From Candidatus Goldiibacteriota bacterium (lineage in GTDB: Bacteria > Oederibacteriota > PGYV01 > DSYL01): a DNA stretch of 64,000 nucleotides. The stretch is from positions 5,275-69,274 of the forward strand of contig JAGNJD010000001.1 in assembly GCA_018000835.1 (NCBI GenBank), written 5' to 3'. Within the stretch, counting starts at the first letter, position 1. The number at the start of each line of letters is the position of its first letter. This document shows positions 14,953 through 52,014 of this stretch, one piece after another. The translations under genes were made by a program, and so were the position numbers. The notes below the pieces were generated by a model. It did not search any database, had not been told where the DNA came from, and worked only from the letters and a program-made list of their open reading frames with translations.

Positions 14953-16275
14953 TTACCATACGTATTTTACTGCAATTTTTGAATTAAGCGATGTTGGATC
15001 TCCACCAATAAAATCCGGTCCTTTTAAAAGAATGTCCTGACTTACGAGGACATCAAACGTAAATGAACCGACCGTTGCTGATGCGCCAAGCGAAACCGTA
15101 GTATTATTAGTTGAATCTGAACCTGATGATTCTTCAGCAACAGGGTCTGTGTCAAGATTTTTTGTCGTGGTTGATGCTATTGAAAGCAATGGCTGTGATA
15201 TTCCGCCCCTGATTGAAAACGTATCGTTTAACTTTGCTTCTGCACCTAAATCAGCAAAAAGATAAATTGTTGAAGTGCTTTCCTCTGTCCCTTTTGCTTC
15301 AGTGCCTGTTATAACATCTTTACTTTTACCAGTTGTGCTCGAATCTAAACTATATCCGGCCATAACTCCGCAAATTGCTTTTGCTGTTTGTGCCTTGATT
15401 TCCTTTGAAATGCCAAGATTAACTGTAATATTGGAGGAATCACCTGTATTTTCACTATTGCTATCTGCTGCATTGTCAAATTTTCCATCACCATTGTTAT
15501 CTGCTTTAGTAGTAAATTTTGAACTGCCTGAATTATAACCAAAACCTAAACTTGCAAGAAGTGCTTCACCAAGATTAATTCTTCCAAGTAAGTCCAATCC
15601 AAAACCGCCAATGTCAAGAGTATCTTCTCTATATGCCTGGCTTGAACCACCAACATAAGCCTGTTCGTCCAGATCAATGTAAATTGAAGGAAGTGCTAAT
15701 TTTAGTCCGACGTCTATTGAACCCATTGTCAATCCTAACAAAGCGTTTATTTCTCTTGCTGTTGAAGAATATACGTCTTTTGCTGAATCTGGCGTTTTGT
15801 TTTCCCAACCAGCTCCGCTTGATACATAACCAAGTCCTATACCAATTGACATGTCTGACAAATCAATTGCATACAATAAATTTACAGGAGCCGATGCTTG
15901 AGCAGAGGCAATTAAATTATTTTTAACGTTATTCACATTCAGTCCGTTTACTGATGCATTATTAGAAATAGCGGGGATGTCTCCAAGAATGCTGCCTAAC
16001 AAAATCGTATTTTTTCCGACAAATACGCCCAAACTCATTCCATCCAGGCCAAGCGTTACTCCGCCAACTCCAGTGTTTGCCGTCGTTTGCTCAATGACTG
16101 CGATGTTTTTGTAATTTGACAGTTGCCCGGCAAAATCAAAAACAATAGCATTATCATCAAGTGTCTGCCATGTTTCTACTCCAAGTCCTTCTACTCTAGT
16201 TTCTGTTGCAAAAGCAAGTCCTGCAAAAAACATACTTACCACCAACAACGTTAAAACTTTTTTCATAAAGTCCAT
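14953..16275 (-). CDS. Putative outer-membrane beta-barrel protein; paralog of 16599..18002
   Basis: Signal peptide. Gly/Ser/Asn-rich. Ends KYVW with an aromatic C-terminus. The N-terminal region TETRVEGLGVETWQT...NYKN parallels TDARINGLGVPAWMV...NYKN of the neighbouring gene. Confidence 0.5.
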   Translation of the reverse strand: MDFMKKVLTLLVVSMFFAGLAFATETRVEGLGVETWQTLDDNAIVFDFAGQLSNYKNIAVIEQTTANTGVGGVTLGLDGMSLGVFVGKNTILLGSILGDIPAISNNASVNGLNVNNVKNNLIASAQASAPVNLLYAIDLSDMSIGIGLGYVSSGAGWENKTPDSAKDVYSSTAREINALLGLTMGSIDVGLKLALPSIYIDLDEQAYVGGSSQAYREDTLDIGGFGLDLLGRINLGEALLASLGFGYNSGSSKFTTKADNNGDGKFDNAADSNSENTGDSSNITVNLGISKEIKAQTAKAICGVMAGYSLDSSTTGKSKDVITGTEAKGTEESTSTIYLFADLGAEAKLNDTFSIRGGISQPLLSIASTTTKNLDTDPVAEESSGSDSTNNTTVSLGASATVGSFTFDVLVSQDILLKGPDFIGGDPTSLNSKIAVKYVW

Positions 16276-16598: not shown

Positions 16599-18002
16599 TT
16601 AAAATGCATATTTGGCGGAAATCTGTGAGGAAAGTCCACCTGGGAATTTGATATTGATATCTCCCAATGCAGGAACGTTCTGAACGTTGATGCCGCCAGT
16701 AAGAGTTGCATCTATTGTTGCACCGCCTATATTAACTGAAAATCCGCCTGTAAGTTCTACTGAATCCGTTTTGTTTATGTTAAACGTTTGTTTGTTCTGC
16801 GGATCAACTTTAGAACCGCCTGAAATTTTTCTTTCTTCTGTAATTGACAATGAATTTATTATTTTTTTGCTTATGCCTGCACGGATATTCAAGGCATCGG
16901 AAATTTTTCCTTCGGCTGCAAGGTAAATAGGTATAGAAAGTGAATTGAATCCTATTTCTTCTTCCGTCCATACGTCACTACTGACATTTGGTTGTTTATA
17001 CTGGGAATTTCCAAGTTTGGAAGAATAATTAACTGCTACTCCGGGATAAAGTTTCGCATTACCCACTTCAAATACGGCTGAAACTCCGCCGCCAACCGAC
17101 ATGCCGTTAACTTTGTCCAGCGAACGCTCATTAGTATCAATACCAGAATCTTCATAATCTTTATCCGAATTGCCGTCGTATAGTTGTATGTCTTCTGTTT
17201 CGAGAGAATTCATAGCAAAAGAAACGCCTATTACCAGCGGAGTTATATTAACCCTGGCGTTTGCGCCAATTTCCATTCCGGATTTTGATTTAAGCGTCTC
17301 TTCTCTATATGGTGCATCCAAAGTACCATCTATATCCTTGCCTTTGTTGTCAACCATCGGCAATCCAAACGTAATGCCTACGTCAAGAATCGGCATTGAT
17401 AAACCCGCACCAATTTCAATTGACATGACGCTCGTTGAATAATCCATAGTATCTGCCGTGTCAATTGTTGATTCTGTTTTAAACGAACCTGTTTTATCCG
17501 CAAGTCCAACGCTGAAACCAATAGACATGTTATCAAGTCCGAGCCCATAAATTATGCCATACGTCCTATGTGGCACATCAACATAACCCGGATTAATAAT
17601 ATCTCCTGAAGCGCCCAAAAATGTTTCTTCAAGATTTCCCGTTAAGTTGTGCATATTGGATTTTAATACGCCATTGTAAGGATTTGCAAAAATTCCAAGA
17701 ACATTACCACCTAAATCTAAATTGGCATACCCACCGCCGTATGAAATTGCTTTTGAAACAATCTGTAATGGATCCGAGCCAAATATCATTATATCAAACA
17801 CGTCCAGGTTAATTTCGGTAGTTGAATTAATCCCTATCACGTTCTTGTAATTAACTACCTGTCCTTGAAAAATCCGCACTAATGAGTCATCTGACTGAAC
17901 CATCCACGCCGGCACGCCGAGGCCGTTTATCCTGGCATCGGTAGCAAATACCGGCAAAACAAAAAAAGCCAAAACAATTACAACTGTAAAAAGTTTCTTC
18001 AT
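16599..18002 (-). CDS. Putative outer-membrane beta-barrel protein; paralog of 14953..16275
   Basis: Signal peptide MKKLFTVVIVLAFFVLPVFA. Ends KYAF. The N-terminus is similar to the downstream paralog. Confidence 0.5.
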   Translation of the reverse strand: MKKLFTVVIVLAFFVLPVFATDARINGLGVPAWMVQSDDSLVRIFQGQVVNYKNVIGINSTTEINLDVFDIMIFGSDPLQIVSKAISYGGGYANLDLGGNVLGIFANPYNGVLKSNMHNLTGNLEETFLGASGDIINPGYVDVPHRTYGIIYGLGLDNMSIGFSVGLADKTGSFKTESTIDTADTMDYSTSVMSIEIGAGLSMPILDVGITFGLPMVDNKGKDIDGTLDAPYREETLKSKSGMEIGANARVNITPLVIGVSFAMNSLETEDIQLYDGNSDKDYEDSGIDTNERSLDKVNGMSVGGGVSAVFEVGNAKLYPGVAVNYSSKLGNSQYKQPNVSSDVWTEEEIGFNSLSIPIYLAAEGKISDALNIRAGISKKIINSLSITEERKISGGSKVDPQNKQTFNINKTDSVELTGGFSVNIGGATIDATLTGGINVQNVPALGDINIKFPGGLSSQISAKYAF

Positions 18003-18361: not shown

Positions 18362-21001
18362 TTAAAATAACAAATACGGCATTTTTATCAAAAACGCGTA
18401 ATTAAACTCGTTGTCTCTGTTCATTGAAATGCGGAAGCCGACGTCTGCAGTTGCATAAAATGCAAATTTTGTTTCAAGATGCAGTTCAAGTCCATAAGAG
18501 TATGAATATGCATGCTCAGTAACACAATTATCAAAAAACACAAGTCCTGAAAGGTCTTCTACGTAAACGTTTATAGGATTCCATAATCCCCGCCTTATTT
18601 TTAACAGATTCCGCGATATTTCAAAAATTCCTGAAATTGCCTTGTCGCTGTAAATTGAATCTTTGTAACCCCTGATGTCAACTGAATTATCAACGTTTTC
18701 ATTTAAACCATAAAAGCCGTTCATTAAAAGCATTATTTTCGTCTCATGCAAAAAATAAGAAAATGCAAATCTTCCGTAATATCCTTCCTTTATTTCATCG
18801 TCCGGATTTAACGCTTTATCTTCAAATATTGCAGATGCAGATAAACCAAAATTAAAATCCGGATAATTAAATCCCAGATCTATTCCCTGGTCCATCCGGT
18901 TTCTTAAAAAATCGTCAAAAGTAAGATAATTAATGTTTATTGATATCTGCGAAAGTCCGGGCCTGTAACTTACGTATAAAGGATAGTTAATTCCGAATTT
19001 CAGTCTGTCGTCTCTTTTATCGTTATTGTTGGAATACGAAAAATTCATTTTTAGCGGAGCAAAAATGTTGGAACTCAGCAAAAAATCCTGATACGTTACT
19101 GAATCATTAACGTCATAGAGCATCTGTCCCGTCCAGTTAAAATCACCAACGGCATCTGCTCCGCTTAAAAGCAGTCCACCGTATAAATGGCCGTCTGAAT
19201 CGTATGCAACAAGCGGCATTCTGATACGCGGCCATAAAGTCAGAAGATTATCCCAATAACTTCCTTTTGAAATTTCATTTTCTTTTAGTATTGGATATTT
19301 TATCTCTTCAAATTTAGCCTCTTTAAATTTATATTCCCTGCTTTCCGGTTTTTTTATCCTGTAAACGTCAAAACCGTCCGTATTCAGTCCCACAAAATAC
19401 AAATCGCCGGTTGATGTGTCATAGGCAGGTGAACCTGCAACCCCGTTATCCGTTAACCTGTAAACTTTGTCTGTTTTCAGGTCATAACAATAAATTGAAT
19501 AAATTTTTTCATAATTTGACTTAAAAAATATTTTATCGTCACAAATTACCGCGTCATTTTCTATATAAGGGGTATCAATGAGAAGTTTCAGCGTTTTTTT
19601 ATTCTTATCAAACAAATATAAGCCTGGATTTTCGCCTTGCTTCTTTGCTATGCATACGACATTTTTACCGTCAGAATCAAGAAGCATAACGTGATAATCC
19701 GTATCCATTATGAATTTATCTTCCTTTGTTTCAACGTCGTATTCAAACATTTCAGAACCAAAAGAATGAACTTTATCTTTTGCATACGTTAATTTTCCGT
19801 AATTTATGAAATAGGTCCTTATCTCACCGGAGAGTATTTCTTTTTCGTCGTTTGTCAACATGTTTTTTTCATATATGACGGAATATTGCCCGAAAGTCCT
19901 GTTTGATTTGTTCGCAAAGCCCGGTTTTATTTCGTCAATTGAATAATACATGTTTGCTCCGTCAAACCTTAACGGATGATTTACGTTTGAAGTCGTTGAA
20001 AAATAAATTTCCTGTTCGTTGGTATTTAAATCCATTTCAACGACGTCCTGCCTCGTTCTCGTTGAAAAAGCACCGTTTTTATCAATTGCCGTTTTTACGA
20101 AATATAACTTATCCGTTTTAACGGCCGGATAAGAAACGTAACCGCCATAATTTGTAATCTTTTCGCCGGGCTGTTTGTAATTTTTAAATCTTTCCTTTTC
20201 GTATTCCTGCCACTCATTCCACAAATCAATCGTGGTTTTTCCAAAAATTTCGTCAAAAGTTCTGTCCATTCCAAGCCATGGAAATATGGGAGATAAATAT
20301 GACAGGACTGAACCGCCGTATGAATCGTAAAATTTTTTGAATTTATTTTCGCCATATCTTACTGCAAGAAAATTAAAAAATTCGCTGCCAAAAAGATACG
20401 GACCGTTGCCAAAAGGCGACTCAAGAGGCATATACGTTGCTTTTAATATGGAAGGAAATTTGTTTTCGTAGATACACGTTCCAATGTATGAATCAAAACC
20501 GCCGTCGTTTAACCTGCCCATAAAAGGCGAAATTTTTGATTCATTATATACCGTAATTGCTTCGTCAACCCATAACGGAGAAAAAATCTGCGGCGAAAGG
20601 AAATGACCAACAACGGTCGTAAAAACCCGCGGCAGTCCTTCTGATTTTGTAAGATGTAAAATATGCGTATATTCATGAATTGCACAGAGAGACAGCCAGT
20701 CAGCGTCGCCTGAATCGTAATTCATAATGTGGACGTTATAAAATACGGGGTCGGTATAGCCATTTACGTAAGTTCCATAATCGTCAAGGACTATTGAAAG
20801 CGATGAGGCGCTGTTTCCTACTATGTCTTCTGCAATGTGGCTGTATGAATTTAACGCCGATAACGTCTGAAGCGCCCTTTTTTCATATTCCTGCCTGTAA
20901 AACAGGGTAAATTTTTCGTTTTTTATTGCACACCAGTCATAAAAAGAAAAAGAAAACGTCGTCAGCATAAAAAAGGCAAAAATAAAGTATAATTTTTTCA
21001 T
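18362..21001 (-). CDS. Large secreted protein with an HExxH metallopeptidase-like N-domain, a TolB-like beta-propeller region and a C-terminal barrel-like domain
   Basis: 879 aa with a signal peptide. HEYTHILH zinc-binding motif. DSDGKNVVCIAKKQGENPGLYLFD propeller-like repeats. The C-terminus ends LLF. Confidence 0.45.
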   Translation of the reverse strand: MKKLYFIFAFFMLTTFSFSFYDWCAIKNEKFTLFYRQEYEKRALQTLSALNSYSHIAEDIVGNSASSLSIVLDDYGTYVNGYTDPVFYNVHIMNYDSGDADWLSLCAIHEYTHILHLTKSEGLPRVFTTVVGHFLSPQIFSPLWVDEAITVYNESKISPFMGRLNDGGFDSYIGTCIYENKFPSILKATYMPLESPFGNGPYLFGSEFFNFLAVRYGENKFKKFYDSYGGSVLSYLSPIFPWLGMDRTFDEIFGKTTIDLWNEWQEYEKERFKNYKQPGEKITNYGGYVSYPAVKTDKLYFVKTAIDKNGAFSTRTRQDVVEMDLNTNEQEIYFSTTSNVNHPLRFDGANMYYSIDEIKPGFANKSNRTFGQYSVIYEKNMLTNDEKEILSGEIRTYFINYGKLTYAKDKVHSFGSEMFEYDVETKEDKFIMDTDYHVMLLDSDGKNVVCIAKKQGENPGLYLFDKNKKTLKLLIDTPYIENDAVICDDKIFFKSNYEKIYSIYCYDLKTDKVYRLTDNGVAGSPAYDTSTGDLYFVGLNTDGFDVYRIKKPESREYKFKEAKFEEIKYPILKENEISKGSYWDNLLTLWPRIRMPLVAYDSDGHLYGGLLLSGADAVGDFNWTGQMLYDVNDSVTYQDFLLSSNIFAPLKMNFSYSNNNDKRDDRLKFGINYPLYVSYRPGLSQISININYLTFDDFLRNRMDQGIDLGFNYPDFNFGLSASAIFEDKALNPDDEIKEGYYGRFAFSYFLHETKIMLLMNGFYGLNENVDNSVDIRGYKDSIYSDKAISGIFEISRNLLKIRRGLWNPINVYVEDLSGLVFFDNCVTEHAYSYSYGLELHLETKFAFYATADVGFRISMNRDNEFNYAFLIKMPYLLF

Positions 21002-21888: not shown

Positions 21889-23793
21889 ATGCATAAAAAA
21901 TTTTTTTATATTATACTCTTTGGTGCCATTTTTTCAATAACATTTGCCGATGGTATCATCATAAAGACGGACAAAGATAATTATTACCGTTATGAGTGCG
22001 TAAGAATTTCCTGTAAATACATTCCTGATAAACAAAACGAAAAAACAAATATACTGGATTCAATACTAAAGCAGGCAACCCCTGATAATAAAAACATAAA
22101 AAAACAGGCACAATGTTATGGTCGTGTTTATTTCAATAATAAATTAATAAAAACCGTCGGCAACACAGTGGAACTGTCTTTAAAATACAACGAAACCATG
22201 GATATCTGGGAAGCAAGCTGGCCAATCCCGTGGAACCCGGTTACCGGGAATTACGAATTTTTTGTAATTTTAAAAATGAACGGAAAAAGTTATTCCGGAA
22301 AAAAAAGTTTCAACGTGATAAAAAGGACACCTGCGCCGATGGACAAAAATTTATGCGTAATGGACATAGAACCGGGAGACAGCATAATTCAAAGAGTTCC
22401 AGGCGCAGGCGGACAGTCCGTTAAAATCTGGGAAAACTACGTATTATGGGCAAAATTTATGGGCGCTTCTGCTTTATGGCATTGTGCGGGACAATCGCAA
22501 ATCTGGAATTCGTTTAATCCTGCAATTTTTCCATGGGACAAAACGACTATAAAACAGGTGCGGGAAATCGCACAGGCGTGTCATGACTATGGAATGAAAT
22601 ACGGTGCATACATATTAAGTTTTATCGTCCTTGGAAACAGGAGGGATTTATCGCCGTATGAACAGACGACGGGTTATGACAAACAAAACAACGCTTTAAG
22701 AAAACTGATTTACATATCCATAGCAGACCAGAAACGCTGGAATGACATTATAGAATTATTTAAATATTTTAATTCCATTCCAGAAGTTGATTTTGTAGGA
22801 ATGGATTACGTCAGGACAGATTTTGGCGGCTATGAAAACGTCAATGAATTCGTAAGCGATATGCCAATTAAAAATCTGCCGGATGACTGGGGCGATTTAA
22901 CCGACGAAGGCAAAATGCTATGGCTTGGCAAGACCCTTGAAATAGACAAAGACCCTGATACGGAACAGATGTGGCAGTGGTGGCGTGCACATAAAATGTC
23001 AAAAATTATAAAGGAAATAAAAGAAAAATCCGGACTTAAAAAACCGTTATGGACTTATACGCTTACCTGGCGTCAGGGTAAAGAACATGGTCAGGATCCG
23101 CTTATGTTCATTGATGCAGGAGTTGACATTAATGCACTGATGTTTTATTCAATAGACAAAAAAACCTATCCTCAGATGATAGACGACTGGTATTATTATT
23201 TAAAAAGAGGGAATTCAAACATCTTATCAGGCCAATGCGTTGACTGGTATTTACTTGGCAGGTCATATAACCCGTCGGGTCCGGAAGAGCATTTCCTGCG
23301 TCAGAAATTTGCATGTGATAAATTGCAAAAAGTAAACCCGTCTTTTGGTTTTTTCTGGCACGATTTGACCCGTGCTTTTAAATCAACAAAGGGACCGTAT
23401 TCGGCTCTCGAATGGGCCGTTACCGGTGGTGCGACTTTTACGTATTTACGGAAATTAAATGATTTCTTCCCTTTTGAAGTTACGTGGGACGCTCCGGACA
23501 AAGTTGCGAAAGACGAAGTTTTTAACATCGACATAACGATTAAAAATAATGCGCCCATTTCCCTGGATTACTATCTGAAACTTCTAAAAGTATCAAACCT
23601 TGAGATGTATGGCGACATATCACAACAGTTTTATCTGGCACCGGACGAAATTAAATCTTTTTCATTCCAGGTAAAAGCAATCGAGCGGACGTATAAAAAA
23701 AATTTCATGCAGATGCTTGCTTTTATGATACAGTATGACGGATTAAAAACACAGCAAAGGTATTTTGATTTTAAATACATTGAGGTCCGTTAA
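21889..23793 (+). CDS. Secreted hypothetical protein (possible TIM-barrel glycosidase-like)
   Basis: 634 aa with signal peptide [20 protein letters not shown]. Trp-rich. No firm family assignment. Confidence 0.4.
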
Positions 23794-26343: not shown

Positions 26344-26757
26344 ATGCATGGAGTGGAAATGGAAGATAAAAACAAATCCGAAGATAACATTGATTTTATT
26401 AATTTGATACTGATGCTTAACCAGAACGCCCTTATATCACTCGGTGAGATACCGCGGTTTATTGGTGGTAAAAAAAATGCAAACCTGCCCGTTGCACGGC
26501 AAACGATAAACATGATAAAAGCAATACAGGAAAAAACGAAAAACAATTTAACTCCCGGAGAAACAAAGCTTATTTTCCGGACTCTCGGGGAATTACAAAA
26601 AAAATACGTCACGATTACAGGTCTTGATAAATCCGGACCCATTAAAACGCAATCCGCAAAAACCGACATGGAAAATGCTCTGGACAAATTGTCAAATGAT
26701 GACCTTGAAAAAATATTATCCGAATTAAGAAAACAAACAAATGAAGGAAATAAATAA
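26344..26757 (+). CDS. DUF1844-like small protein (hypothetical)
   Basis: 137 aa. The FINLILMLNQNALISLGE segment resembles the DUF1844 family, but the assignment is weak. Confidence 0.4.
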   Translation: MHGVEMEDKNKSEDNIDFINLILMLNQNALISLGEIPRFIGGKKNANLPVARQTINMIKAIQEKTKNNLTPGETKLIFRTLGELQKKYVTITGLDKSGPIKTQSAKTDMENALDKLSNDDLEKILSELRKQTNEGNK

Positions 26758-27241
26758 CGTAAAATCAATAGGCGTCCTGTCGGATTCTCACATCCCTACG
26801 CGTGCAAAAAAACTTCCCGAATCGGTTTTTAAATTGCTTGAAAACGTTGACATAATAATACACTGCGGAGACATAACGACTCAGGACGTAATTTCCGGAT
26901 TAAATTCAATAGCACCTGTTTACCCTGTAAAAGGCAACATGGACCGTGATGACGTTATTTTTCCATCCGAACTTATTTTTAGAATAAATAACAGATTTAT
27001 CTTCTGCATAACGCATGGAAGCGGGGACCCTTTTGGTTTAAAGCAAAGGTTATATAAAAAATTTCTAACATATAAACCCGACGTTATAATATTCGGACAT
27101 TCGCACATACCGGAAAACACGAAATATAACGAAACGCTCATGTTTAATCCGGGAAGTTGCACCCAGGGATTTAAAGGCAACTCCGCCGGGATTATTAGTT
27201 TATCGGATGATAAAATCACCGCGGAAATAAAATATTTATGA
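26741..27241 (+). CDS. YfcE/MJ0936-family metallophosphoesterase
   Basis: GVLSDSHIP...IIHCGDI...GHSHIP metallophosphatase motifs. Confidence 0.75.
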   Translation: MKEINNVKSIGVLSDSHIPTRAKKLPESVFKLLENVDIIIHCGDITTQDVISGLNSIAPVYPVKGNMDRDDVIFPSELIFRINNRFIFCITHGSGDPFGLKQRLYKKFLTYKPDVIIFGHSHIPENTKYNETLMFNPGSCTQGFKGNSAGIISLSDDKITAEIKYL

Positions 27242-27416: not shown

Positions 27417-28553
27417 TTATTTTATTTTTTTATAAACGTAGTAAAAATATCTTACTCCATGACTGTCAATAACGTCCATGGGGATCTGAAGAAAACCGGT
27501 TTTATAAAATTTTTTATTGCCAAAATTCTGATGAAAAATAACACTGCAGATTATGTCATCTTTTTCAGATTTTGCAAACGACATAAGTCGTGCCGTCGTC
27601 GTAATCGTATTGCCATATACGTTTAATGATTTTTGTCCTGCTATATTTACTTCTGCCAGTAAATCCATGCCATTATTTACCGCCGTTCTTGCGTTCCATT
27701 GAGGAATTCGTTTTTTTACATTTTCAACGTTTGCTTTTTTCATTTCCATCAAAAATTTCAAGGCGAACTGAAAATTAATGTCCTGTTCTTCCCTGTTCCC
27801 CAAAAAACACAAATATGCACCATCACCCAGCAGAATAAGTATGTAATCTTTATAATTTAAAAGTAGTTTATTTAATATTGAATTAAACTGCGGTATCCAG
27901 TAATCCCGTTGCGTTTCAAGGTCCGTTTCAGTGGATGCCCTGATATCAATGCCAAGGCAGGAATTAAAATGCTCTTTACCCGTTTCAAGAACCTTTGAAA
28001 AATTCAATGGAATAAAAACATTGCTTACTTTGTTTTTTGACGTCTCTTCTTCCCCGGATAGAATCCTGACTTTGTATTTAAATCCTTCGTAATATTCTGA
28101 ATCTCCGGGAAAAGTAAAACCATCGTATTTATAAAATGCGGCCTGTGCATCAATGCCCGCTTGTTTTATCCATTTTTCCATGATATTTCTGTCTGCTTTT
28201 ACGGTTATTACAAAAAATATGGTATCTTCCGGCCTTATTTCCTCACCCGCGCCGTAAGACAATAATTTGTATTCACCGCCTCTTTTTATAAACGTGCCGG
28301 CAAAAGAATCCGGTTTCTGGATTTTCGTCGTTTGTTTAAAAACATTTTCAGGAGGCAAACCGTCAAAAATACGCCATGCATTTTTTTCCCATTTAATGTA
28401 TGCCTGAATGCGTGAAAGGATCGATTTTTCGTCGGGACATAACTTTACGTCAAGCCCCTCAAAATCCCGTCCTATAAGATAGGTCTTATTTTTATCCTTT
28501 AATTCAATTATTTCCTTTTTGCCGCAAACGCCGCAGCAAAATTCAAGTATCAT
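27417..28553 (-). CDS. Zn-ribbon plus FHA domain plus class-III nucleotidyl-cyclase-like domain protein
   Basis: 378 aa. N-terminal CCGVCGK zinc ribbon. FHA-like YLIGRD...LDVKL...ILSRIQAYIKWE...WRIFDG. The C-terminal CLGIDIRAS / ILLGDGAY / ARTAVNNGM...VYGNTITTTARLMS block parallels the cyclase homology domain motifs FxDIxGFT / KTIGDAYM / RIGIHTG...GDTVNTASRMES. Confidence 0.5.
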   Translation of the reverse strand: MILEFCCGVCGKKEIIELKDKNKTYLIGRDFEGLDVKLCPDEKSILSRIQAYIKWEKNAWRIFDGLPPENVFKQTTKIQKPDSFAGTFIKRGGEYKLLSYGAGEEIRPEDTIFFVITVKADRNIMEKWIKQAGIDAQAAFYKYDGFTFPGDSEYYEGFKYKVRILSGEEETSKNKVSNVFIPLNFSKVLETGKEHFNSCLGIDIRASTETDLETQRDYWIPQFNSILNKLLLNYKDYILILLGDGAYLCFLGNREEQDINFQFALKFLMEMKKANVENVKKRIPQWNARTAVNNGMDLLAEVNIAGQKSLNVYGNTITTTARLMSFAKSEKDDIICSVIFHQNFGNKKFYKTGFLQIPMDVIDSHGVRYFYYVYKKIK

Positions 28554-28597
28554 ATTTTGTCTCCCGGCAAATTTAACGTTATTATAACATACAAGCC

Positions 28598-29464
28598 TTA
28601 TTTAATTATTATTAATTTCTGAATTTTACTTTTTTCAGTTTTATTATTGCAATGCTTGATTACCTGATAAAAGTAAACGCCAGGTGCAAATTTTTTCGGA
28701 TAAAAATTTATTTTTCCAGCTCCGGATATATCCTTTTTTTCAATTTTTTCGGCAACTCTGCCATCCATGGTATATATTATTATTTCAACGTTGCCATTAT
28801 CTTTTAAATCATACAAAAGAAAAATTTCTTCCCCTGATTTTAATGGATTGGGATAAAATTTTTCTTTTACGAAATTAAAAACCTCTGCTGCCATTGTCGG
28901 GGTATAAAAAGGTGTCCATGTATTTGTAATCGTGGAAGTATTGGCGGCCGTTGACGTATTGGTAAACGTGGCAGTTGCCGTTAAGGTCGGAGTAAAAGTT
29001 ATGGTCGGCGTGGTCGTATTCGTTTGCGTGCACGTCCGGGTATCCGTTACCGACACAGTAACGGATGGAGTTGCCGTCTCTGTGTATGTAAACGTATTTT
29101 CAGGTGTCCACGTCTGCGTCTGCGTATCGGTTATTGTCATCGTATCCGAAATCGTTAACGTTGCAGTTAAAGTTTGCGTAAAAGTCATGGTTGCAATGGT
29201 CGTGTCTGTTTGCGTGCATGTCGGACTTTCCGTCATCGTGACAGTAACAACCGTGTTCGTAAAAGTAACGGATGGAGTTGCCGTCTCTGTGTATGTAAAC
29301 GTATTTTCAGGCGTCCACGTATCAGTTGCGGTGTGCGTAAAAGTCATCGTGACTGTTTCCGTAAAAGTCGGCGTAATTGTCTGCGTTTCCGTTGGGGTAT
29401 CTTCTGCCAAAACGACGTTTACCACAAACATAAAACAAAAAATAATTAAAAAATTTTTTTTCAT
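28598..29464 (-). CDS. Secreted Thr-rich repeat protein with a T9SS-type C-terminal sorting domain
   Basis: Signal peptide. Approximately 200 aa of TxT low-complexity sequence with a ~69-aa internal duplication (WTPENTFTYTETATPSVT). The C-terminal ~80 aa (FYPNPLKSGEEIFLLYDL...IIIYTMDGRVAEKI...GVYFYQV...KLIIIK) matches the Por-secretion C-terminal domain pattern. Confidence 0.55.
   Translation of the reverse strand: MKKNFLIIFCFMFVVNVVLAEDTPTETQTITPTFTETVTMTFTHTATDTWTPENTFTYTETATPSVTFTNTVVTVTMTESPTCTQTDTTIATMTFTQTLTATLTISDTMTITDTQTQTWTPENTFTYTETATPSVTVSVTDTRTCTQTNTTTPTITFTPTLTATATFTNTSTAANTSTITNTWTPFYTPTMAAEVFNFVKEKFYPNPLKSGEEIFLLYDLKDNGNVEIIIYTMDGRVAEKIEKKDISGAGKINFYPKKFAPGVYFYQVIKHCNNKTEKSKIQKLIIIK
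28990..29400. repeat. Tandem ~207-bp DNA repeat inside the Thr-rich gene
   Basis: TAACGGATGGAGTTGCCGTCTCTGTGTATGTAAACGTATTTTCAGG recurs at ~29059 and ~29266. Confidence 0.75.
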
Positions 29465-29477
29465 TTAAACTCCATGA

Positions 29478-30719
29478 CTATTTCAACAATCTTATCCAGT
29501 ATTTTAAAAGTTCATTGTCTTTATCAAAATAATTTGCCCGTTCAAAATACTGACGCGCTCTTTGTGTATCTTTTATGTTATAGTAACAAATTCCGAGTTT
29601 CTGAAAAAATGCGGATTTTTCCTTATCGCTCATGCTTTCAACGTCGCGCCAGTATAATAAATTTATGTATTCAAAATATTTGACTGCATCTTTGTATTGT
29701 TTTGATTCATAATAATAATTACCCGACTCCATATAACCTGCAAACGACTCGTTCCCTTTTGTTTTCGTATCTGATTTTTCTGCGGAAACAATTTTGCCAA
29801 AATCTGCACTTATTGAAATTTTATGAACATTCCGGGAAAAAGGCAATGTCTCAAAAGAATAATCACAATGAATGCCGTCTATTTTAAACCCGGCGCCTCC
29901 TGTAAAATTTACTTCATCAAAATTATTATTTATGCCCCCTCGTAAAACGACAACGTCAAATACTGAAAAATCAGCGCCTGCATAAAAAGACAGATAATTT
30001 TCCTTGATTAAATAATTAATTGCGGTGGAAAAAACCAGAAAATTACCCGGGACTGAATAATTAAACGCTGCTTTTAAATCAATGGGAGTATAATAATAAT
30101 CCATCTGCGTTGAAACGTTAAGTAAACTTACGCCAAAATCCAGATTATCCGTAAAAATATTTTCGTAGATGATACCCGCATCTATGCAAAATAAAAAACT
30201 GTTTTCATCTGCAAGATTTTCAAAAACAAATTTTGGTGCAACTCCAAAACCAAAATTATTCATTTTTCTGGAAATTATCAGCGAAGTAAACAAAACGGAG
30301 CTTTTTAACGTATTGCCGGATAAAACCGGATTGCCATATACGTCAGACTTTATTTCCTGGATGTCTCCAAAATCAATGTAATTTAATTCCAGTCCCAATA
30401 CCCCGAATTCAAAAATTTTTGCAATGCTCAGTTTTTGTCCGGAAACGTCGTCCATGTATCTGTTATACATCGTTGCAAATTCCCCATTTTTTATGCCTGC
30501 TATTGCAGCAGGATTTAAACTTACGGAATTAATGCCGGTAAAAGAAGCGCCAACCGCTTCGCCTTTTGCGCCGTATTCCGGATATGAATTAATCAATAAA
30601 TATGCGGCGGTCGTTATGTTTTCTGATTTGACCGGGCTTAACAATAAAAAACACGTTAAAATTATAAATATTGTTTTTTTCATGATTAAAATAATAACAT
30701 CAAAGATATTACGTGTCAA
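29478..30719 (-). CDS. Outer-membrane barrel-like protein (PorV/FadL-like N-domain) with C-terminal TPR repeats
   Basis: Signal peptide (probably starting at MKKTIFIIL). The N-terminal ~300 aa have a beta-strand-like alternating pattern. The C-terminal YYESKQYKDAVKYFE...GICYYNIKDTQRARQYFERANYFD is TPR-like. Confidence 0.45.
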   Translation of the reverse strand: MTRNIFDVIILIMKKTIFIILTCFLLLSPVKSENITTAAYLLINSYPEYGAKGEAVGASFTGINSVSLNPAAIAGIKNGEFATMYNRYMDDVSGQKLSIAKIFEFGVLGLELNYIDFGDIQEIKSDVYGNPVLSGNTLKSSVLFTSLIISRKMNNFGFGVAPKFVFENLADENSFLFCIDAGIIYENIFTDNLDFGVSLLNVSTQMDYYYTPIDLKAAFNYSVPGNFLVFSTAINYLIKENYLSFYAGADFSVFDVVVLRGGINNNFDEVNFTGGAGFKIDGIHCDYSFETLPFSRNVHKISISADFGKIVSAEKSDTKTKGNESFAGYMESGNYYYESKQYKDAVKYFEYINLLYWRDVESMSDKEKSAFFQKLGICYYNIKDTQRARQYFERANYFDKDNELLKYWIRLLK

Positions 30720-32504: not shown

Positions 32505-33500
32505 TTATATTTTCCCGACCGGTATTATATAAGCAATCATAAAAAATATTATGCCCCAGAGCAGGAATATCCAGTAATTTTCTTCATATCTCGTTTCTTT
32601 TTTTATTTTTGCCCTGTTTGCTTCCATTTCCTTTATGTCGTCCAAAATTTTGTTAAAAACGTTTATGTCCGTTGCCCTGTAATATTTTCCATCCGTAATT
32701 CCTGCTATTTGTTTTAATACAGTTTCGTTAAGACGTGATACGACGTATTCACCCTTATACGTTTTATAATAAGTCCTTCCCCAGACGTCGGTTCCCTCCG
32801 GTATCATTCCTCCTTTTTCCGTTCCGACACCGACCGCATAAATTCTTATATTTTTTTCTTTTGCAATTTTTGCCGCATCAAGAGGGGACATCCCTTCCAG
32901 TGATTCACCGTCGGTTATCAGTATTATTGCCCTTGATTTTTCTGCTTTTTCTTCCATACGTTCAACTGCAGATTTTATTGCATTTCCAAGTGCAGTTCCC
33001 TCTTTTGACAGCATCCCTGCATAAATTGAATCTATGATAAAACTGACTGCCTCATAATCAAGCGTGAGAGGGCACTGGACAAAATCTATACCGCTGAAAA
33101 CGATTATTCCAACCCTGTCTCCGGATAAATTTGCAACAAAATTATTTAATCCCTTTTTAACGACTTCTATCCTGTTTGGTTTCATATCTACTGCATTCAT
33201 TGACGATGAAACGTCCATAACTATCATGATGTCCCTTCCTGAATATTTTTGCTCGCTTTCTATGGGCTTTCCAAGCGGCCTTGCCGCAGCAATGATGAAC
33301 AAAACAAACGACGTCAAAATCAGCGAGTATCTTACAATTATTGCAGTAAAAGAAACTTTATGAAAAACCTTGTCCTGCAAATTTACGTCAAAAAATTTAT
33401 TAAAATTACGGAATGAAGAATATATCCTGTAACATAGATATAAAAATACCGGTATCAAAAGAATTAATAATTTTAATGCATCCTTATTATAAAAATTCAA
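32505..33500 (-). CDS. VWA-domain protein (BatB-like)
   Basis: N-terminal TM, then a VWA domain with MIDAS motif DVSSSM. Confidence 0.7.
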   Translation of the reverse strand: MNFYNKDALKLLILLIPVFLYLCYRIYSSFRNFNKFFDVNLQDKVFHKVSFTAIIVRYSLILTSFVLFIIAAARPLGKPIESEQKYSGRDIMIVMDVSSSMNAVDMKPNRIEVVKKGLNNFVANLSGDRVGIIVFSGIDFVQCPLTLDYEAVSFIIDSIYAGMLSKEGTALGNAIKSAVERMEEKAEKSRAIILITDGESLEGMSPLDAAKIAKEKNIRIYAVGVGTEKGGMIPEGTDVWGRTYYKTYKGEYVVSRLNETVLKQIAGITDGKYYRATDINVFNKILDDIKEMEANRAKIKKETRYEENYWIFLLWGIIFFMIAYIIPVGKI

Positions 33501-33544
33501 AATTTCCTCCTGAATTTTCTGCAGTTACTAAAAATGAATTTTTT

Positions 33545-34555
33545 TTATACAAATACCCTGAAAAATTTAAAAACCTCAAGAAACAAATCAATAAGCAGAA
33601 TGATAAGGCCGATCCACAAAAATGTCTGAAACCTGTCGATATACCTGTTATATGTTTTTATTTTTATGTTCTGTTTTTCCAGTTTCCCTATCATTTCGTA
33701 AATCTCTTTTAATGCTTTTTCATCCGTTGCCCTGAAATATCTGCCGCCCGTCATGTTTGCAATCTGCGTAAGAGTTTTTTCGTCGGGCTCCTCCCATTTT
33801 AACTGTTGTCCCGTATACCTGTCTATAACCGGCCTTTTAACTCCATCCCATCCGAGTTGCATCATGGGTGCACCGCCTTTTTTACCGATGCCGATAGTAT
33901 ATATTTTTATCCCCTTATGAATGGCCGCCTGTGCTGCTTCTATCGGAGAAAAACCGCGGTTATTTACACCGTCCGTAGTAAGGATAATTACACGTGACGG
34001 GCCTGAATTTTCAAGACGGTTTATTGAAGTAATGATGGCATCTCCCATCGCAGTTCCATCTATTCTTATTGTCTGAAAATCTATCTGGTCAATGAAACTT
34101 TTTATGATTTCGTAATCCGTGGTTAAAGGGCACTGAAAAAAACTTGTCCCTGCAAAAACTACGAGTCCTACCCTGTCTCCAGAAAGTCCGGAAACGAATT
34201 TTCTTATTACTTCCTTTGCTGCCTCCAGTCTGTTCGGTTTTAAATCCTCTGCCTGCATGCTGCCCGATATGTCAAGCGCAACTATGATGTCTATGCCTTT
34301 TATGTCTTCCTGCGTTTCTTTTTGTATTTTTTGTGGTCGTAAAAGTGCTATTATCAGAAAAACAAGACCCGCGACTTTTAAAAAATCGAGAACGTAAATT
34401 ACGATGGTGTTGTATCCGGAAGACGTTTTTTGTAAAATAAAAAAGTTGGAAAATCTGAATTTCCTTAATTTTACGTAATTATAAATCAGGGATATAAGAA
34501 AAATCAGTCCAAGAATTAAAATCGGTAAAAGTAAATTCCTGTTTGCAAATCTCAT
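33545..34555 (-). CDS. VWA-domain protein (BatA-like)
   Basis: N-terminal TM, then a VWA domain with MIDAS motif DISGSM. Confidence 0.7.
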   Translation of the reverse strand: MRFANRNLLLPILILGLIFLISLIYNYVKLRKFRFSNFFILQKTSSGYNTIVIYVLDFLKVAGLVFLIIALLRPQKIQKETQEDIKGIDIIVALDISGSMQAEDLKPNRLEAAKEVIRKFVSGLSGDRVGLVVFAGTSFFQCPLTTDYEIIKSFIDQIDFQTIRIDGTAMGDAIITSINRLENSGPSRVIILTTDGVNNRGFSPIEAAQAAIHKGIKIYTIGIGKKGGAPMMQLGWDGVKRPVIDRYTGQQLKWEEPDEKTLTQIANMTGGRYFRATDEKALKEIYEMIGKLEKQNIKIKTYNRYIDRFQTFLWIGLIILLIDLFLEVFKFFRVFV

Positions 34556-35442
34556 TTTGCCAGTCTCCGTTCACGCATTCTGAAAAAAGACATGAGTTTC
34601 TTATAAAAAGGTTGCCCGCAGTAAAGTTTCATAAAATCAACTCCTGCTGATTTAAACTGTTTCTCAAGTTTATTGTCAAATGCTTCACTTGTCTTCCTGA
34701 ATTTTTCCATGACCTTTTTGTTTGATGTATCAATCCACACGACTTTGTCATTTTCAGCGTCGTAAAAAGGTATAAATCCTATGTCTGGAATGTTAAAATC
34801 CGCATCGTCACGCAAAATTACGGCAATAACGTCATGTTTATGTTTTAAAATTTTAACGGCTTCAAAAAAATCCTTTGGATCGTAAAAATCCGAAATGATA
34901 AATATAGTTGAGCGTTTCTTTAAAAGATGGCTTAAATATTTTAAGCCCGCTGCAATGTCCGTTCCAGATTCCCTTTGCCTATGATATAAAATTTCCCTTA
35001 TTATCCGCAATACGTGCTTTTTCCCTTTTTTTGGCGGTATGTATTTTTCTATTGACGATGAAAAACCGAGATATCCAACCCTGTCATTGTTGATGTTTGC
35101 CGTGAAACCAAGCGTTGCAATAAATTCAAACATGAGTTCCTTTTTAAGATTCGTTTTCGTGCCAAAATCCAGGGAACCGCTTAAATCAGTGGCAAAAAAA
35201 ACCTGCAATTCCCTTTCTTCTATAAACGTCTTTACGTAAGGCACGTTCATCCGTGCAGTTACGTTCCAGTCAATGGACCTTATGTCATCGCCTTCCACGT
35301 ATTCCCTGACCTCTGTGAATTCCACGCCTCTCCCTTTAAAAGAGGAAAGATACTCTCCCTGAAGCACGGTATCAACGAGATTACGGGTGGTTATTTCTAT
35401 TTTTTTTATTTTCTTTAATATATCTTTTGATATTACCTGCAT
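34552..35442 (-). CDS. DUF58-family protein
   Basis: FKGRGVEFTEVREYVEGDDIRSIDWNVTAR is the conserved DUF58 core. Its position between moxR and the VWA genes matches the Bat operon pattern. Confidence 0.7.
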   Translation of the reverse strand: MQVISKDILKKIKKIEITTRNLVDTVLQGEYLSSFKGRGVEFTEVREYVEGDDIRSIDWNVTARMNVPYVKTFIEERELQVFFATDLSGSLDFGTKTNLKKELMFEFIATLGFTANINNDRVGYLGFSSSIEKYIPPKKGKKHVLRIIREILYHRQRESGTDIAAGLKYLSHLLKKRSTIFIISDFYDPKDFFEAVKILKHKHDVIAVILRDDADFNIPDIGFIPFYDAENDKVVWIDTSNKKVMEKFRKTSEAFDNKLEKQFKSAGVDFMKLYCGQPFYKKLMSFFRMRERRLAK

Positions 35443-36425
35443 TACGGGACCTTTATCTTGTTTATTATCTGATTTATTACGTCGTCAGTGGATATTTCTT
35501 CTGCTTCTGCTTCGTATGAAAGTATTAATCTGTGTCTTAAAATGTTATGTGCCATGATTTTTACGTCGTCAGGAGAAACGTATCCATGTCCATTGATAAA
35601 GGCATTTGCTTTTGCTGAAGTTATTAAACTTATGGACGCCCTGGGTGAACACCCGTATTCTATAAGATGAGAAATGTCAATCTTGTAATCCTGAGGTTTT
35701 CTTGTTGCATAAACTATGTCGGTAACGTATTCTTTTATTTTTTCGTCAACATAAATATTGTCGACGATGGAGCGCATATCCATTATATCCTTCGGTTTTA
35801 AAATCGTGTCAACTTCTATTTCTTCTCCGGTTGTCATCCTGTTTATTATTTCTATTTCCTGGTTTTTATCAGGATAAGTAATTAAAACTTTCATCAGGAA
35901 TCTGTCTACCTGTGCTTCCGGCAGGGGGTACGTTCCTTCTGTTTCTATCGGGTTTTGAGTGGCAAGAACTATAAACGGTTCTTCAAGATTAAACGTTTTT
36001 TCCCCTATGGTTACCTGTTTTTCCTGCATGGCTTCGAGAAGGGCCGACTGGACTTTTGCAGGAGCCCTGTTTATCTCGTCCGCAAGAACTATATTTGCAA
36101 AAATAGGCCCAGTTGATATTGAAAAATTTCCTGTGTTCGCATTATATATCCGTGTTCCAATCAAATCTGCAGGCAAAAGGTCGGGAGTAAACTGTATGCG
36201 TGAAAATTTTGACTGAATGGTTTTTGAAAGGACTTTTACGCACATCGTTTTTGCAAGCCCCGGAACACCTTCCAGTAATATGTGTCCCCTGCATAAAAGT
36301 CCTATAAGCAAACCCTTTATCATTTCTTCCTGTCCTACTATTACTTTCTGCACTTCTTTTACAGTCTCTGTAAGTTTCTCGGATTTTTCCATTTCTTTTT
36401 CAGATAATTTTACGATTTTGGCCAT
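35442..36425 (-). CDS. MoxR-family AAA+ ATPase
   Basis: GHILLEGVPGLAKT Walker A, DEINRAP Walker B, and typical MoxR length. Confidence 0.85.
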   Translation of the reverse strand: MAKIVKLSEKEMEKSEKLTETVKEVQKVIVGQEEMIKGLLIGLLCRGHILLEGVPGLAKTMCVKVLSKTIQSKFSRIQFTPDLLPADLIGTRIYNANTGNFSISTGPIFANIVLADEINRAPAKVQSALLEAMQEKQVTIGEKTFNLEEPFIVLATQNPIETEGTYPLPEAQVDRFLMKVLITYPDKNQEIEIINRMTTGEEIEVDTILKPKDIMDMRSIVDNIYVDEKIKEYVTDIVYATRKPQDYKIDISHLIEYGCSPRASISLITSAKANAFINGHGYVSPDDVKIMAHNILRHRLILSYEAEAEEISTDDVINQIINKIKVP

Positions 36426-48666: not shown

Positions 48667-49500
48667 TTAAAGTAAATCTCTTCTCTTAATTAATAAATCT
48701 TTTACAGTGAACTTCGTTTCTTTCAAAAGCCAACGAAAGAAACTTTTACTTAATTTAAGTATCGTAGAATTATGATATCTTATCAGCCAGTTCGTTTTAG
48801 TTCTTATTTTAAAATCCTTTTTATTCTTCTTATAGTTGTTAACTATTACTTCTTTGTGCCTCAAAACAAAAGACAAATATTCTTCAACATCGTCGCATTC
48901 ATCTGCAATAGCCCTTAAATAATCTATAAAATATAAGCCATCTGCATCCTTTCGTATATTATTCTTTATATCACTCATTTCCATCTTTAAGTTGTGCTCT
49001 CGTTTTTTAAATAAGTCAGATGCACTTCTTAAAAACTTGAATATTTCTGGGTCAATTACTATTCGTGGAAACTTCGCAATTTGGCTTTCAAATTTATATG
49101 CTCTATTAAACCCTGGACCAAATACGTTCTTCTTTTCATAATAGAGTTCATCTATGACAACAGCACCACGAATAAAAATGTCATTCGCCACCATATTTGT
49201 TTGTAGATGAACCAAATCAAGTAATTCAAAAAATAGAATTCCCTGGGGATACTTAATATTACTTCTGCTTAAAACATTTCTAACCCTTATTGCCATATCA
49301 GAAAACTTAAAAAAATATGGTTCTCCTCTGCGAAAAGGACGTTGGTCTTCATTGTAATATTCAAAAATTTTAAGTTTTTCTAAAATTACATTTGGGTCTG
49401 TTTCATTTTCCATAACTTTTTTAAACCCTAAAATATCCAGAAAAGTAATAATGCACGTTTTATATTTGTGCTTTCGTTTTTTTGACATTTTTCCTCCCAA
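48667..49500 (-). CDS. Hypothetical protein with class-III nucleotidyl-cyclase-like N-terminal motifs, inside an IS-flanked islet
   Basis: 277 aa. CIITFLDILGFKK / FKFSDMAIRV / IRGAVVIDE...FGPGFNRAYKFES parallel the cyclase homology domain motifs. The C-terminal 140 aa are helical and unassigned. Flanked by IS30-end copies A and B. Confidence 0.35.
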   Translation of the reverse strand: MGGKMSKKRKHKYKTCIITFLDILGFKKVMENETDPNVILEKLKIFEYYNEDQRPFRRGEPYFFKFSDMAIRVRNVLSRSNIKYPQGILFFELLDLVHLQTNMVANDIFIRGAVVIDELYYEKKNVFGPGFNRAYKFESQIAKFPRIVIDPEIFKFLRSASDLFKKREHNLKMEMSDIKNNIRKDADGLYFIDYLRAIADECDDVEEYLSFVLRHKEVIVNNYKKNKKDFKIRTKTNWLIRYHNSTILKLSKSFFRWLLKETKFTVKDLLIKRRDLL

Positions 49501-49654
49501 TAAGAATATATATTATTATATCTCTCGTAGTAAGTATTTTAAAGTATTATGAAATTTTTAGAATTGCACGGCAACTTACAAGTTTTATTGCAACACTCCC
49601 AAAACTTCACATGCTTTTTTTGTAACAAACTTCCTTGTAATATTGTTGAATGTC

Positions 49655-49978
<324 letters not shown>

Positions 49979-50097
49979 CTATTTGTTGCAATTCATTTTA
50001 CAATGTTTAACCCGTATCAAAAAGCCGGCTTGATTCTTCATAATCTGTCATAAGCAACCCGCCTGTTGAGATTACGGAAGCATTTTATCCGTATTTT

Positions 50098-50310
50098 CTA
50101 TCGCGTCGCAATCAGGAACCTGACAGAGCCGTCCTTTTCTTTGACTGGAAAAAACAGTATGGACGGTATTTTCTCGCGCTTTTTATGTTCCTCGCTGCCC
50201 GCCCGTAAAAGCACCAGCCCGTCGGCGCCTGGTATCTCCGCGACATCGCCTTTCATCGAGGTTTTCATCGTTTCTATCTTCATTTCCAGTCCTTTTGCTA
50301 ATTTGATCAT
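50098..50310 (-). CDS. Small ORF (70 aa) in a GC-rich insert inside the IS remnant; function unknown
   Basis: Preceded by AGGGAG. Composition is markedly more GC-rich than its surroundings. May be spurious. Confidence 0.2.
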   Translation of the reverse strand: MIKLAKGLEMKIETMKTSMKGDVAEIPGADGLVLLRAGSEEHKKREKIPSILFFPVKEKDGSVRFLIATR

Positions 50311-50932
50311 TTTATACGCTCCCTCAGTAATATCCGGCTATAATCTTGATAATCAAAATCGGACCCTAATAATGCTGCAAAGACTGCAATTTTTATCCGG
50401 AATTGTATATTAATTTTTAATGATATTTTTCTTTTAATTCAGGCTTTGATTCAACCATTTTTACGTCTGCCATTCCCAGGAAGTCGGATAATTTCAACGA
50501 TTCCTGCTTTTCCATATTAATTTCCATCGTGTGTTCGTCATATTTTGTTTCAGCTTTAGGCCCGTTCCTCTCAATATAACTCTGAATAGTTATCTATGGT
50601 AACCTCCCAGAAAATCCTGTTTGCCGTATTCCGTTTCACTATTAATTTAAGTGTTGCCATAGAAACTCCTTTTCCAATGACGTTATAAGAAGTAGCAATT
50701 ACATTCACTTATATCTTGTTTTTATATCATTGAAACTTTAACAAAAACCTATTTGCGGTATGAATATTTTCCGCATTAGTCTGTTTCTATACGGAAATAA
50801 CTCTAACCTTCTTCTTCTGCAACTTCTACTGCGTATGAAAAATTCTTTATACAGGCCTTTAAAATACTCACCATCCCGTCTGATATAATATTCGTAATCA
50901 GAAAAAAATCCAAAAGCCCCTTCTTTACGTAA

Positions 50933-51139: not shown

Positions 51140-51282
51140 ACATCTGCTTATTTCCCCGCGTTCTTCGTAACCGAGTTTTCCATAGCCGGTTTCTCTCTTT
51201 GTTTCTTAACGACTCCTTTGATATCATAATCATATCAAAGTGTTGCGTTAGATTTTAGCCGTCGGGCAAGAATTATGTAATT

Positions 51283-51960: not shown

Positions 51961-52014
51961 CCGCGTATAGCCTTCCCTCGTTATCGTGCCTGGATTTCTG
52001 CCCATATAAGGTTT

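Follow-up and report, generated by a model that had tools for sequence, protein, structure and literature searches.

The stretch analysed here, hereafter the window, comprises 64,000 nucleotides of the Candidatus Goldiibacteriota assembly GCA_018000835.1 (contig JAGNJD010000001.1, positions 5,275 to 69,274) and carries on its minus strand a gene for a soluble protein of 378 amino acids (aa) without any hydrophobic segment. From the predicted structures and the family alignment, we describe this protein as an FHA domain with an embedded cysteine cluster, joined by a flexible linker to a C-terminal domain that is predicted to be a divergent class III nucleotide cyclase homology domain (Table 1). 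The open reading frame (ORF) coincides exactly, in position and strand, with the one singled out in a first-pass annotation made from the sequence. The protein is identical to a 'hypothetical protein' that a homologue search recovered from a metagenome-assembled genome (MAG) of Candidatus Goldbacteria. It has 36 other homologues at 36-86% identity, nearly all of them full-length at 374-409 aa and three shorter at 250-364 aa, and an alignment of 28 family members holds 58 invariant columns. This homologue set and its conservation indicate a real gene under purifying selection.

Table 1. Features of the cyclase-like gene, its product and its immediate neighbours. Positions are those of the window; pLDDT, predicted local distance difference test; T9SS, type IX secretion system.
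Feature	Residues	Position	Strand	Basis or remarks
Whole gene	378 aa	27417..28553	-	ATG at 28553, TAA at 27417-27419; ORF list and codon check
FHA domain	1-118	28200..28553	-	AlphaFold2, Foldseek and conservation
Cys cluster inside the FHA fold	C7, C10, E14, C39	28437..28535	-	C7 28533-28535, C10 28524-28526, E14 28512-28514, C39 28437-28439
Two-helix insertion and final beta strand	119-168	28050..28199	-	Packs against the FHA domain; both models give it high pLDDT
Flexible interdomain linker	169-192	27978..28049	-	Lowest pLDDT (56-76); no invariant column
Predicted divergent class III cyclase homology domain	193-378	27420..27977	-	Pfam, CyaB profile, Foldseek, residue spacing and invariance
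Motif CLGIDIRAS	199-207			Carries D203
Motif ILLGDGAY	240-247			Carries D244
Motif ARTAVNNGM	288-296			Carries R289
Motif VYGNTITTTARLMS	312-325			T318 at the Asn position; R322
Metal Asp 1	D203	27945-27947	-	Invariant in the 28-sequence family
Metal Asp 2	D244	27822-27824	-	Invariant in the 28-sequence family
Arg of the RxGxH motif	R289	27687-27689	-	Invariant in the 28-sequence family
Transition-state Arg	R322	27588-27590	-	Invariant; aligned to the Arg of the ASRLES motif
Base-specifying Lys position	I240	27834-27836	-	Invariant in the 28-sequence family
Base-specifying Asp/Thr position	N311	27621-27623	-	Invariant in the 28-sequence family
Transition-state (ribose-orienting) Asn position	T318	27600-27602	-	93% of the 28-sequence family
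Upstream gap, 44 bp		28554..28597	-	GGGAG ribosome-binding site and TGTTATAAT (extended -10-like); read from the sequence
Thr-rich protein with T9SS C-terminal sorting domain	288 aa	28598-29464	-	Upstream of the cyclase gene, 44-bp gap
PorV/PorQ-family outer-membrane protein with C-terminal TPR repeats		29478-30719	-	14-bp gap to the Thr-rich gene
YfcE-like Metallophos_2 phosphoesterase		26741-27241	+	Downstream, convergent with the cyclase gene

The first-pass annotation had read the C-terminal half as cyclase-like, with four class III motifs in the correct order and spacing, and both the sequence profiles and the predicted fold bear this out. The Pfam model PF00211 (Guanylate_cyc) matches residues 223-331 with 22.5 bits at a cut-off of 21.9 (E 9.5e-5), and 24 of the 28 family members match it individually (best E 1.4e-7). 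Among the PDB sequences, a profile of the family found one solved protein, Pseudomonas aeruginosa CyaB (3r5g; E 0.0098), with all four motifs aligned in register to their canonical counterparts (DIRSST/DIRGFT, LLGDGA/FVGDCV, RLAVNNG/RMGINTG and VYGNTITTTARL/IIGREVNLASRL); a single-sequence phmmer search against the PDB sequences returned chance matches to conglycinins only. An AlphaFold2 model was built from the family alignment, all predictions being of single chains, and reached a mean pLDDT of 87.7 with a full-length predicted template modelling score (pTM) of 0.55. Searched against the PDB with Foldseek, it gave 162 matches at E<=1e-3, of which the best 50 are all class III adenylyl, guanylyl or pyrimidine cyclases (E 1e-9 to 2.5e-7; template modelling (TM) scores of 0.6-0.8 normalised to the target); CyaC, Cya2, CyaB, RhGC, mammalian C2, Rv1625c, Rv1900c and AnPycC are among the matches listed. 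Residues ~193-378 are thus predicted to form a class III cyclase homology domain, and neither a non-cyclase fold nor an unrelated family, the two outcomes on which the first-pass annotation had staked its reading, emerged from AlphaFold2 and Foldseek or from the profiles. A GGDEF diguanylate cyclase was considered and rejected: the motif reads GDGAY, no GGDEF structure occurs in the top 50 fold matches, and Pfam GGDEF does not match.

The active site was mapped by the numbering of Rv1625c (PMC4174876), and the mapping was confirmed with alignments to CyaB, CyaC and Cya2. In Rv1625c, K296 and D365 specify the substrate and N372 and R376 act in the transition state, and the Lys precedes the second metal Asp, D300, by four residues (PMC4174876); the residue spacing in the window protein agrees with that of K296/D300/D365/N372/R376. 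D203, D244, R289 and R322, together with the P-loop residue T208 and with G314, are invariant in the 28 sequences down to 38% identity. The chance that the named positions in the cyclase domain would all be invariant is ~1.5e-3 for four of them and ~5e-5 for six. Across all relatives, canonical ones included, only D203, G243-D244-G245 and G314 are invariant. The Thr that the first-pass annotation had noticed in place of the transition-state Asn is confirmed as T318, and two further replacements came to light, I240 and N311, which match neither of the canonical class III pairs (Lys with Asp/Thr for ATP; Glu with Cys/Ser/Gly for GTP). The outgroup proteins P0037, P0038 and P0039 (36-39% identity) retain the canonical Asn, as do the canonical relatives, so the Asn-to-Thr change is derived; P0037 and P0038 also have a more canonical P-loop (DIVGFT/DITGYT). 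Additional lineage-specific invariant residues are R254, D258, W286, N315, H341-Q342 and Y350-K351. Taken together, the alignments indicate a site in which the metal and phosphate chemistry is kept and the residues that read the base and the ribose are rewritten.

Such rewriting has natural parallels. Ma1120 of Mycobacterium avium has Ala in place of the Asn and is nonetheless active as an adenylyl cyclase (PMC4215837); the Asn is hence dispensable in some natural active cyclases, which by analogy would support tolerance of T318. The Pycsar pyrimidine cyclases keep the two Asp residues and select CTP or UTP with other residues at and around the Lys position (PMC11224242): in EaPycC the selectors are F100, R142 and Q144 and the metal ligands D102 and D146, with R142 at the Lys position, and in AnPycC the selectors are F60, K104 and F109 and the metal ligands D62 and D106. 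With Ile240/Asn311 invariantly in place of the purine-selecting Lys/Asp pair, the sequence does not tell which product is made, and cAMP is our default guess.

The N-terminal part was modelled separately. The AlphaFold2 model of residues 1-168 (pLDDT 88.8, pTM 0.86) is an eleven-strand beta-sandwich, and its top 50 Foldseek matches in the PDB are essentially all FHA domains, including those of MDC1 (E 2e-4, TM 0.7, root mean square deviation 2.4 A), SLMAP, ArnA, RNF8, Rad53, GarA and Bdellovibrio DgcB (6hc1). The FHA pattern proposed from the letters (IGRD / LSRIQ / FDG...SFAGTF) is upheld by this fold. Since an N-terminal profile found nothing meaningful among the PDB sequences, the assignment rests on the fold search; the homologous fragment P0035 is named 'FHA domain-containing protein' by NCBI. 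Three of the five FHA signature residues are kept, G28 being invariant and R29 and S47 (with R48) present in 96% of members. The beta6-beta7 loop carries a low-confidence insertion of 17 residues (66-82), and the segment of two helices and a final strand that follows the domain contains an invariant G157-F158-K159-Y160.

The cysteines belong to this fold. A CxxC...CxxC zinc ribbon, as first proposed for the N-terminus, is not present: one CxxC (C7, C10) lies in the first beta-hairpin and a lone invariant C39 in the loop that follows strand 4, a second CxxC and a separate domain are both lacking, and all the cysteines sit within strands and loops of the FHA sandwich. Conservation of C7, C10 and C39 extends from the family to the outgroups P0037-39 and P0045/46/49, even at less than 40% identity. 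Position 14 is Glu in 89% of members and aligns with a His in the P0046 subgroup. A structural metal site of the Cys3-Glu/His type, which would staple the hairpin to the ligand-binding loops, is therefore plausible.

The homologues all come from Goldbacteria/FCPU426-type MAGs. With one genome per species in GTDB, the family occurs in nine genomes, labelled as Goldiibacteriota, candidate division FCPU426 or 'uncultured Spirochaetia/bacterium' MAGs. When 1.84 billion representative proteins were scanned exhaustively with phmmer, only 18 matched at E<=1e-3, and a profile search that used the divergent cyclase domains as its query yielded only eight proteins, of which P0054 and P0055 alone had not been found previously. 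An NCBIfam scan of the protein gave no useful match. The divergent-cyclase clade is small and sharply bounded.

Its cyclase domain, which has Thr for the Asn and Ile for the Lys, is also attached to other modules. In P0041 and P0043 (metagenome; L021, 2147-3910) it is C-terminal to a hydrophobic leader, a WD40 propeller and one strong transmembrane segment, and in P0044 and P0047 it stands behind TPR repeats. For a bacterial cyclase, a WD40 sensor on the extracytoplasmic side is in itself an unusual feature. As the order sensor-membrane-cyclase is the classic layout of a receptor cyclase, the divergent domain appears to be a signalling output. The Cys-bearing FHA subtype, for its part, is shared with P0045 and P0046 (37% identity over 115 residues, E 2e-15), in which FHA, GAF and a canonical cyclase domain follow one another (cyclase Pfam E 1e-24 to 1e-26); P0046 matches Pfam FHA at E 3.9e-5. 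At both of these loci a gene for a Hanks-type Ser/Thr kinase with TPR repeats (Pkinase+TPR) lies directly downstream of the FHA-GAF-cyclase gene, with gaps of 17 bp and 257 bp. These kinase genes (L018, 9763-11199; L020, 2489-5038) are on two unrelated metagenome contigs and make a candidate conserved kinase-cyclase cassette. The gene order ties the Cys-bearing FHA subtype to kinase signalling, though P0045 and P0046 lack the GR arginine. In an FCPU426 genome, the homologue of the window gene is followed 1.8 kb downstream by a gene for a canonical Guanylate_cyc protein of 923 aa with TPR repeats (L007, 8968-11739), so such genomes also carry conventional class III cyclases.

With somewhat more confidence than doubt, we propose that the protein is a cytosolic, lineage-specific nucleotide cyclase that works as a dimer with two metals and is gated by phosphothreonine. 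What the analysis establishes directly is the pair of folds, how the residues map and are conserved, the narrow taxonomic range and the absence of a conserved operon. Catalysis, dimerisation, gating by phosphothreonine and metal binding by the cysteines are what we infer. A Hanks-type Ser/Thr kinase encoded elsewhere in the genome would phosphorylate a Thr on a partner protein, possibly on the cyclase itself. One candidate ligand in the latter case is T214, conserved in the family within LETQRD, which resembles a pT-x-x-D motif. The FHA domain, stiffened by its embedded cysteine cluster, would bind the phosphothreonine through R29, S47 and R48, and this binding would alter the pairing of two cyclase domains across the flexible linker. 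A putative head-to-tail dimer of these domains would form two-metal active sites at its interface, where D203 and D244 would bind the metals, R289 and R322 would steady both phosphates and transition state, and T318 would stand in for the ribose-orienting Asn, so that a nucleoside triphosphate could be converted to a 3',5'-cyclic nucleotide. A tested precedent is DgcB, in which binding of the phosphorylated tail by the FHA domain switches on a dimeric GGDEF cyclase (PMC6733907). The relatives built as WD40-transmembrane receptors argue, by analogy, for a signalling role, and the retained phosphate-contacting R29 and S47/R48, with the Hanks-type kinase beside the FHA subtype of the relatives, would fit phosphothreonine as the ligand.

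Several findings weigh against this proposal. The PF00211 score barely exceeds its threshold, and of the six residues with a canonical role in catalysis or specificity, three differ (I240, N311 and T318). Pfam FHA (PF00498) does not match the window protein at E<=5 and matches just two of the 28 members (best E 8.3e-4). Within the FHA fold, the signature His is an invariant Gln (Q50), the signature Asn is a variable position (A85; Ala, Gly, Phe or Ser), and the GR arginine is absent from the outgroups P0037-39 and P0045/46. There is no N-terminal tail, and no conserved Thr that could serve DgcB-like self-binding occurs in tail or linker; for this reason the phosphothreonine ligand would probably be supplied in trans. 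No kinase, phosphatase or receptor for cyclic nucleoside monophosphates was found among the larger ORFs scanned in the window, nor adjoining six Goldbacteria-clade homologues, and the NCBI Prokaryotic Genome Annotation Pipeline calls the protein hypothetical. Some of these points would suit a pseudo-cyclase that has lost catalysis and retains its cyclase domain as a nucleotide-binding or dimerisation scaffold, the protein then being a phosphothreonine-dependent adaptor: other residues occupy all three of the Lys, Asp/Thr and Asn positions, the match to Pfam lies close to its threshold, and no linked receptor or phosphodiesterase is conserved. We consider such a loss unlikely, if worth serious attention. 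Both metal Asp residues, Thr208, R289 and R322 are invariant over deep divergence, whereas scaffolds such as mammalian C2 lose exactly these metal residues (PMC4174876). Moreover, natural active enzymes exist without the Asn (PMC4215837) or without the Lys/Asp pair (PMC11224242), and the relatives employ the divergent domain as a receptor output.

An active cyclase might instead make a non-purine or otherwise non-canonical product, such as cCMP or cUMP, for housekeeping and not for defence. The invariant Ile240/Asn311 replace the purine-reading pair, the base choice of Pycsar enzymes is set at and around the same positions (EaPycC R142 at the Lys position; PMC11224242), and the structural and profile matches include the pyrimidine cyclases 8jsz and 8jsf. 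However, no PADLOC PycC model matches even at E 0.1, and the residues are unlike the known CTP and UTP determinants. The mycobacterial Rv1900c and Rv0386, too, have non-canonical pairs and reportedly still make mainly cAMP. We regard a product of this kind as quite improbable. The more specific idea that the Ile240/Asn311/Thr318 site makes a messenger other than cAMP or cGMP, as a chromosomal housekeeping function under Ser/Thr-kinase (phosphothreonine/FHA) control in Goldbacteria, is likewise a long shot. A role in anti-phage defence, as a Pycsar or related cyclase, is suggested by the distant proteins P0051-53 (E 4.6e-4 to 8.5e-4), which match PycC models, and appears extremely unlikely: the window protein and P0037 have no PADLOC match (E<=0.1), no effector is adjacent, the neighbours being housekeeping genes (LepA, Dxr, RpsB etc.) or T9SS genes, and the narrow occurrence, in nine species-level genomes that belong to one lineage group, is more in keeping with vertical inheritance than with a mobile defence gene. 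A further alternative would place the protein in a T9SS-linked signalling module with the PorV/PorQ-like gene and the gene for the Thr-rich cargo. All three genes share a strand and are separated by short gaps of 14 and 44 bp, and the arrangement is retained in a relative with 80% identity. Against this, the neighbourhoods differ completely around the homologues P0012, P0016, P0026, P0032 and P0037, the cargo is probably exported, given its leader and sorting domain, and would be beyond the reach of a cytosolic FHA domain, and the gap before the cyclase gene has a -10-like element and a ribosome-binding site of its own. Largely refuted by the lack of synteny, such a module is highly improbable.

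The genes on either side were compared across these loci. The first-pass annotation had pointed to a secreted, Thr-rich T9SS cargo next door; the Thr-rich protein with its sorting domain is indeed there, and a functional link to the cyclase found no support, synteny being lost in the five distant homologues. Neither the T9SS genes nor the YfcE-like phosphoesterase proved to be in conserved synteny with the cyclase gene when this was looked for, the adjacency being kept only in the relative with 80% identity. Around the five more distant homologues the neighbours are, instead, PhoU_div/PHO4 and CAP; NFACT-R_2/NYN and MarR; a histidine kinase and unknown proteins; NADase_transloc; and large unknown proteins. 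We therefore take the T9SS adjacency to be incidental, because it is lost in homologues below ~80% identity and the cargo is probably exported. The translation of the Thr-rich gene begins with an N-terminal hydrophobic leader, and its body consists almost wholly of Thr-x repeats with an internal duplication, TWTPENTFTYTETATPSVT occurring twice. Two long, Val-rich antisense ORFs (28932-29468 and 29174-29449, plus strand) are composition artefacts of this repeat. The PorV/PorQ-family match (NCBIfam, 86.6 bits) is slightly below the 90-bit cut-off, and a PorV-TPR fusion is unusual for a phylum outside the Bacteroidota. The YfcE-like phosphoesterase is imaginable as a phosphodiesterase partner. 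Judging by the consensus match of TGTTATAAT, the cyclase gene may have its own promoter; a terminator and promoter scan gave nothing informative.

The remaining genes identified in the window serve housekeeping functions (TopA, DprA, a tyrosine recombinase, LepA, IspG, RseP, Dxr, CdsA, UppS, PyrH, RpsB, AccC/AccB, EF-P and AroE), and Rfam and tRNA scans of it were empty. A region of ~1.7 kb (49500-51250) holds short ORFs only, has no Pfam, Rfam or tRNA match and is flanked by a diverged direct repeat of ~165 nt (49571-49735 and 51835-51969; 78-84% identity, 2.25 kb apart); its local GC content is 0.41-0.47, compared with ~0.35 for the window. Four large ORFs have no Pfam match at E<=1e-5, namely 14953-16275, 16599-18002 and 18362-21001 on the minus strand and 21889-23793 on the plus strand (440, 467, 879 and 634 aa), and the last of them is also unannotated in the syntenic contigs L005 and L006. 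Four same-strand genes lie at 32505-36425 (minus strand): the pair at 32505-34555 seems to match two VWA-domain proteins (Pfam VWA) of the syntenic L006, and the two genes upstream of it resemble, from their translations, a MoxR-type AAA ATPase and a DUF58-like protein. This arrangement suggests a Bat/MoxR-type operon.

The assignment gives a likely function to a protein that is conserved across a poorly studied candidate phylum and publicly labelled 'hypothetical', and it shows a divergent cyclase clade recurring behind three sensor modules: FHA, WD40-transmembrane and TPR. If active, the protein would be a compact test case for nucleotide choice in class III enzymes and for the wiring of Ser/Thr-kinase to cyclic-nucleotide signalling in bacteria. 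Should it prove inactive, we would have a pseudo-cyclase from bacteria with its metal site kept.

With the class III enzymes CyaB (3r5g), Spirulina CyaC (1wc1) and Synechocystis Cya2 (2w01), the window protein shares the predicted fold (TM 0.7-0.75), the order and spacing of the four motifs, the metal Asp residues and the transition-state Arg. It differs from them in its low identity (13-18%) and in having Ile for Lys, Asn for Asp/Thr and Thr for Asn. Synechocystis Cya1 (slr1991) is said to be a soluble, experimentally active adenylyl cyclase of ~340 aa with an FHA domain at the N-terminus and a class III domain at the C-terminus, the two-domain plan of the window protein, for which no open-access text gave confirmation. 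P0045 and P0046 have the Cys-bearing FHA subtype and a class III output in common with the window protein, but possess a GAF domain, a strongly canonical cyclase domain and a downstream Pkinase+TPR gene, none of which is found here. Bdellovibrio DgcB (PMC6733907) resembles it in having an N-terminal FHA domain, a linker and a dimeric palm-fold cyclase (the dimer being proposed in our case); in contrast, the output of DgcB is a GGDEF domain making cyclic di-GMP, its FHA domain has the consensus residues and no insertions, and its ligand is its own N-terminal tail, whereas the FHA domain of the window protein starts at residue 2 and has no tail before it. Ma1120 and the PycC enzymes work in spite of a replaced Asn (by Ala, in Ma1120) and a replaced Lys/Asp pair (in PycC), but Ma1120 keeps Lys/Asp, the PycC enzymes belong to defence operons with effectors, and the replacement residues are not those of the window protein. 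The fusion of FHA and cyclase domains is thus less unusual than the first-pass annotation had held, since relatives with FHA, GAF and canonical cyclase domains exist and FHA-GGDEF cyclases have been characterised (PMC6733907). FHA with a palm-fold or class III cyclase is an already known design, as in DgcB and the P0046-type proteins, and for this reason the surprise to specialists will be moderate. What is new compared with these systems is a clade confined to one phylum, whose active site is rewritten to Ile/Asn/Thr with the metal ligands retained, and an FHA domain with an embedded cysteine cluster and a loop insertion.

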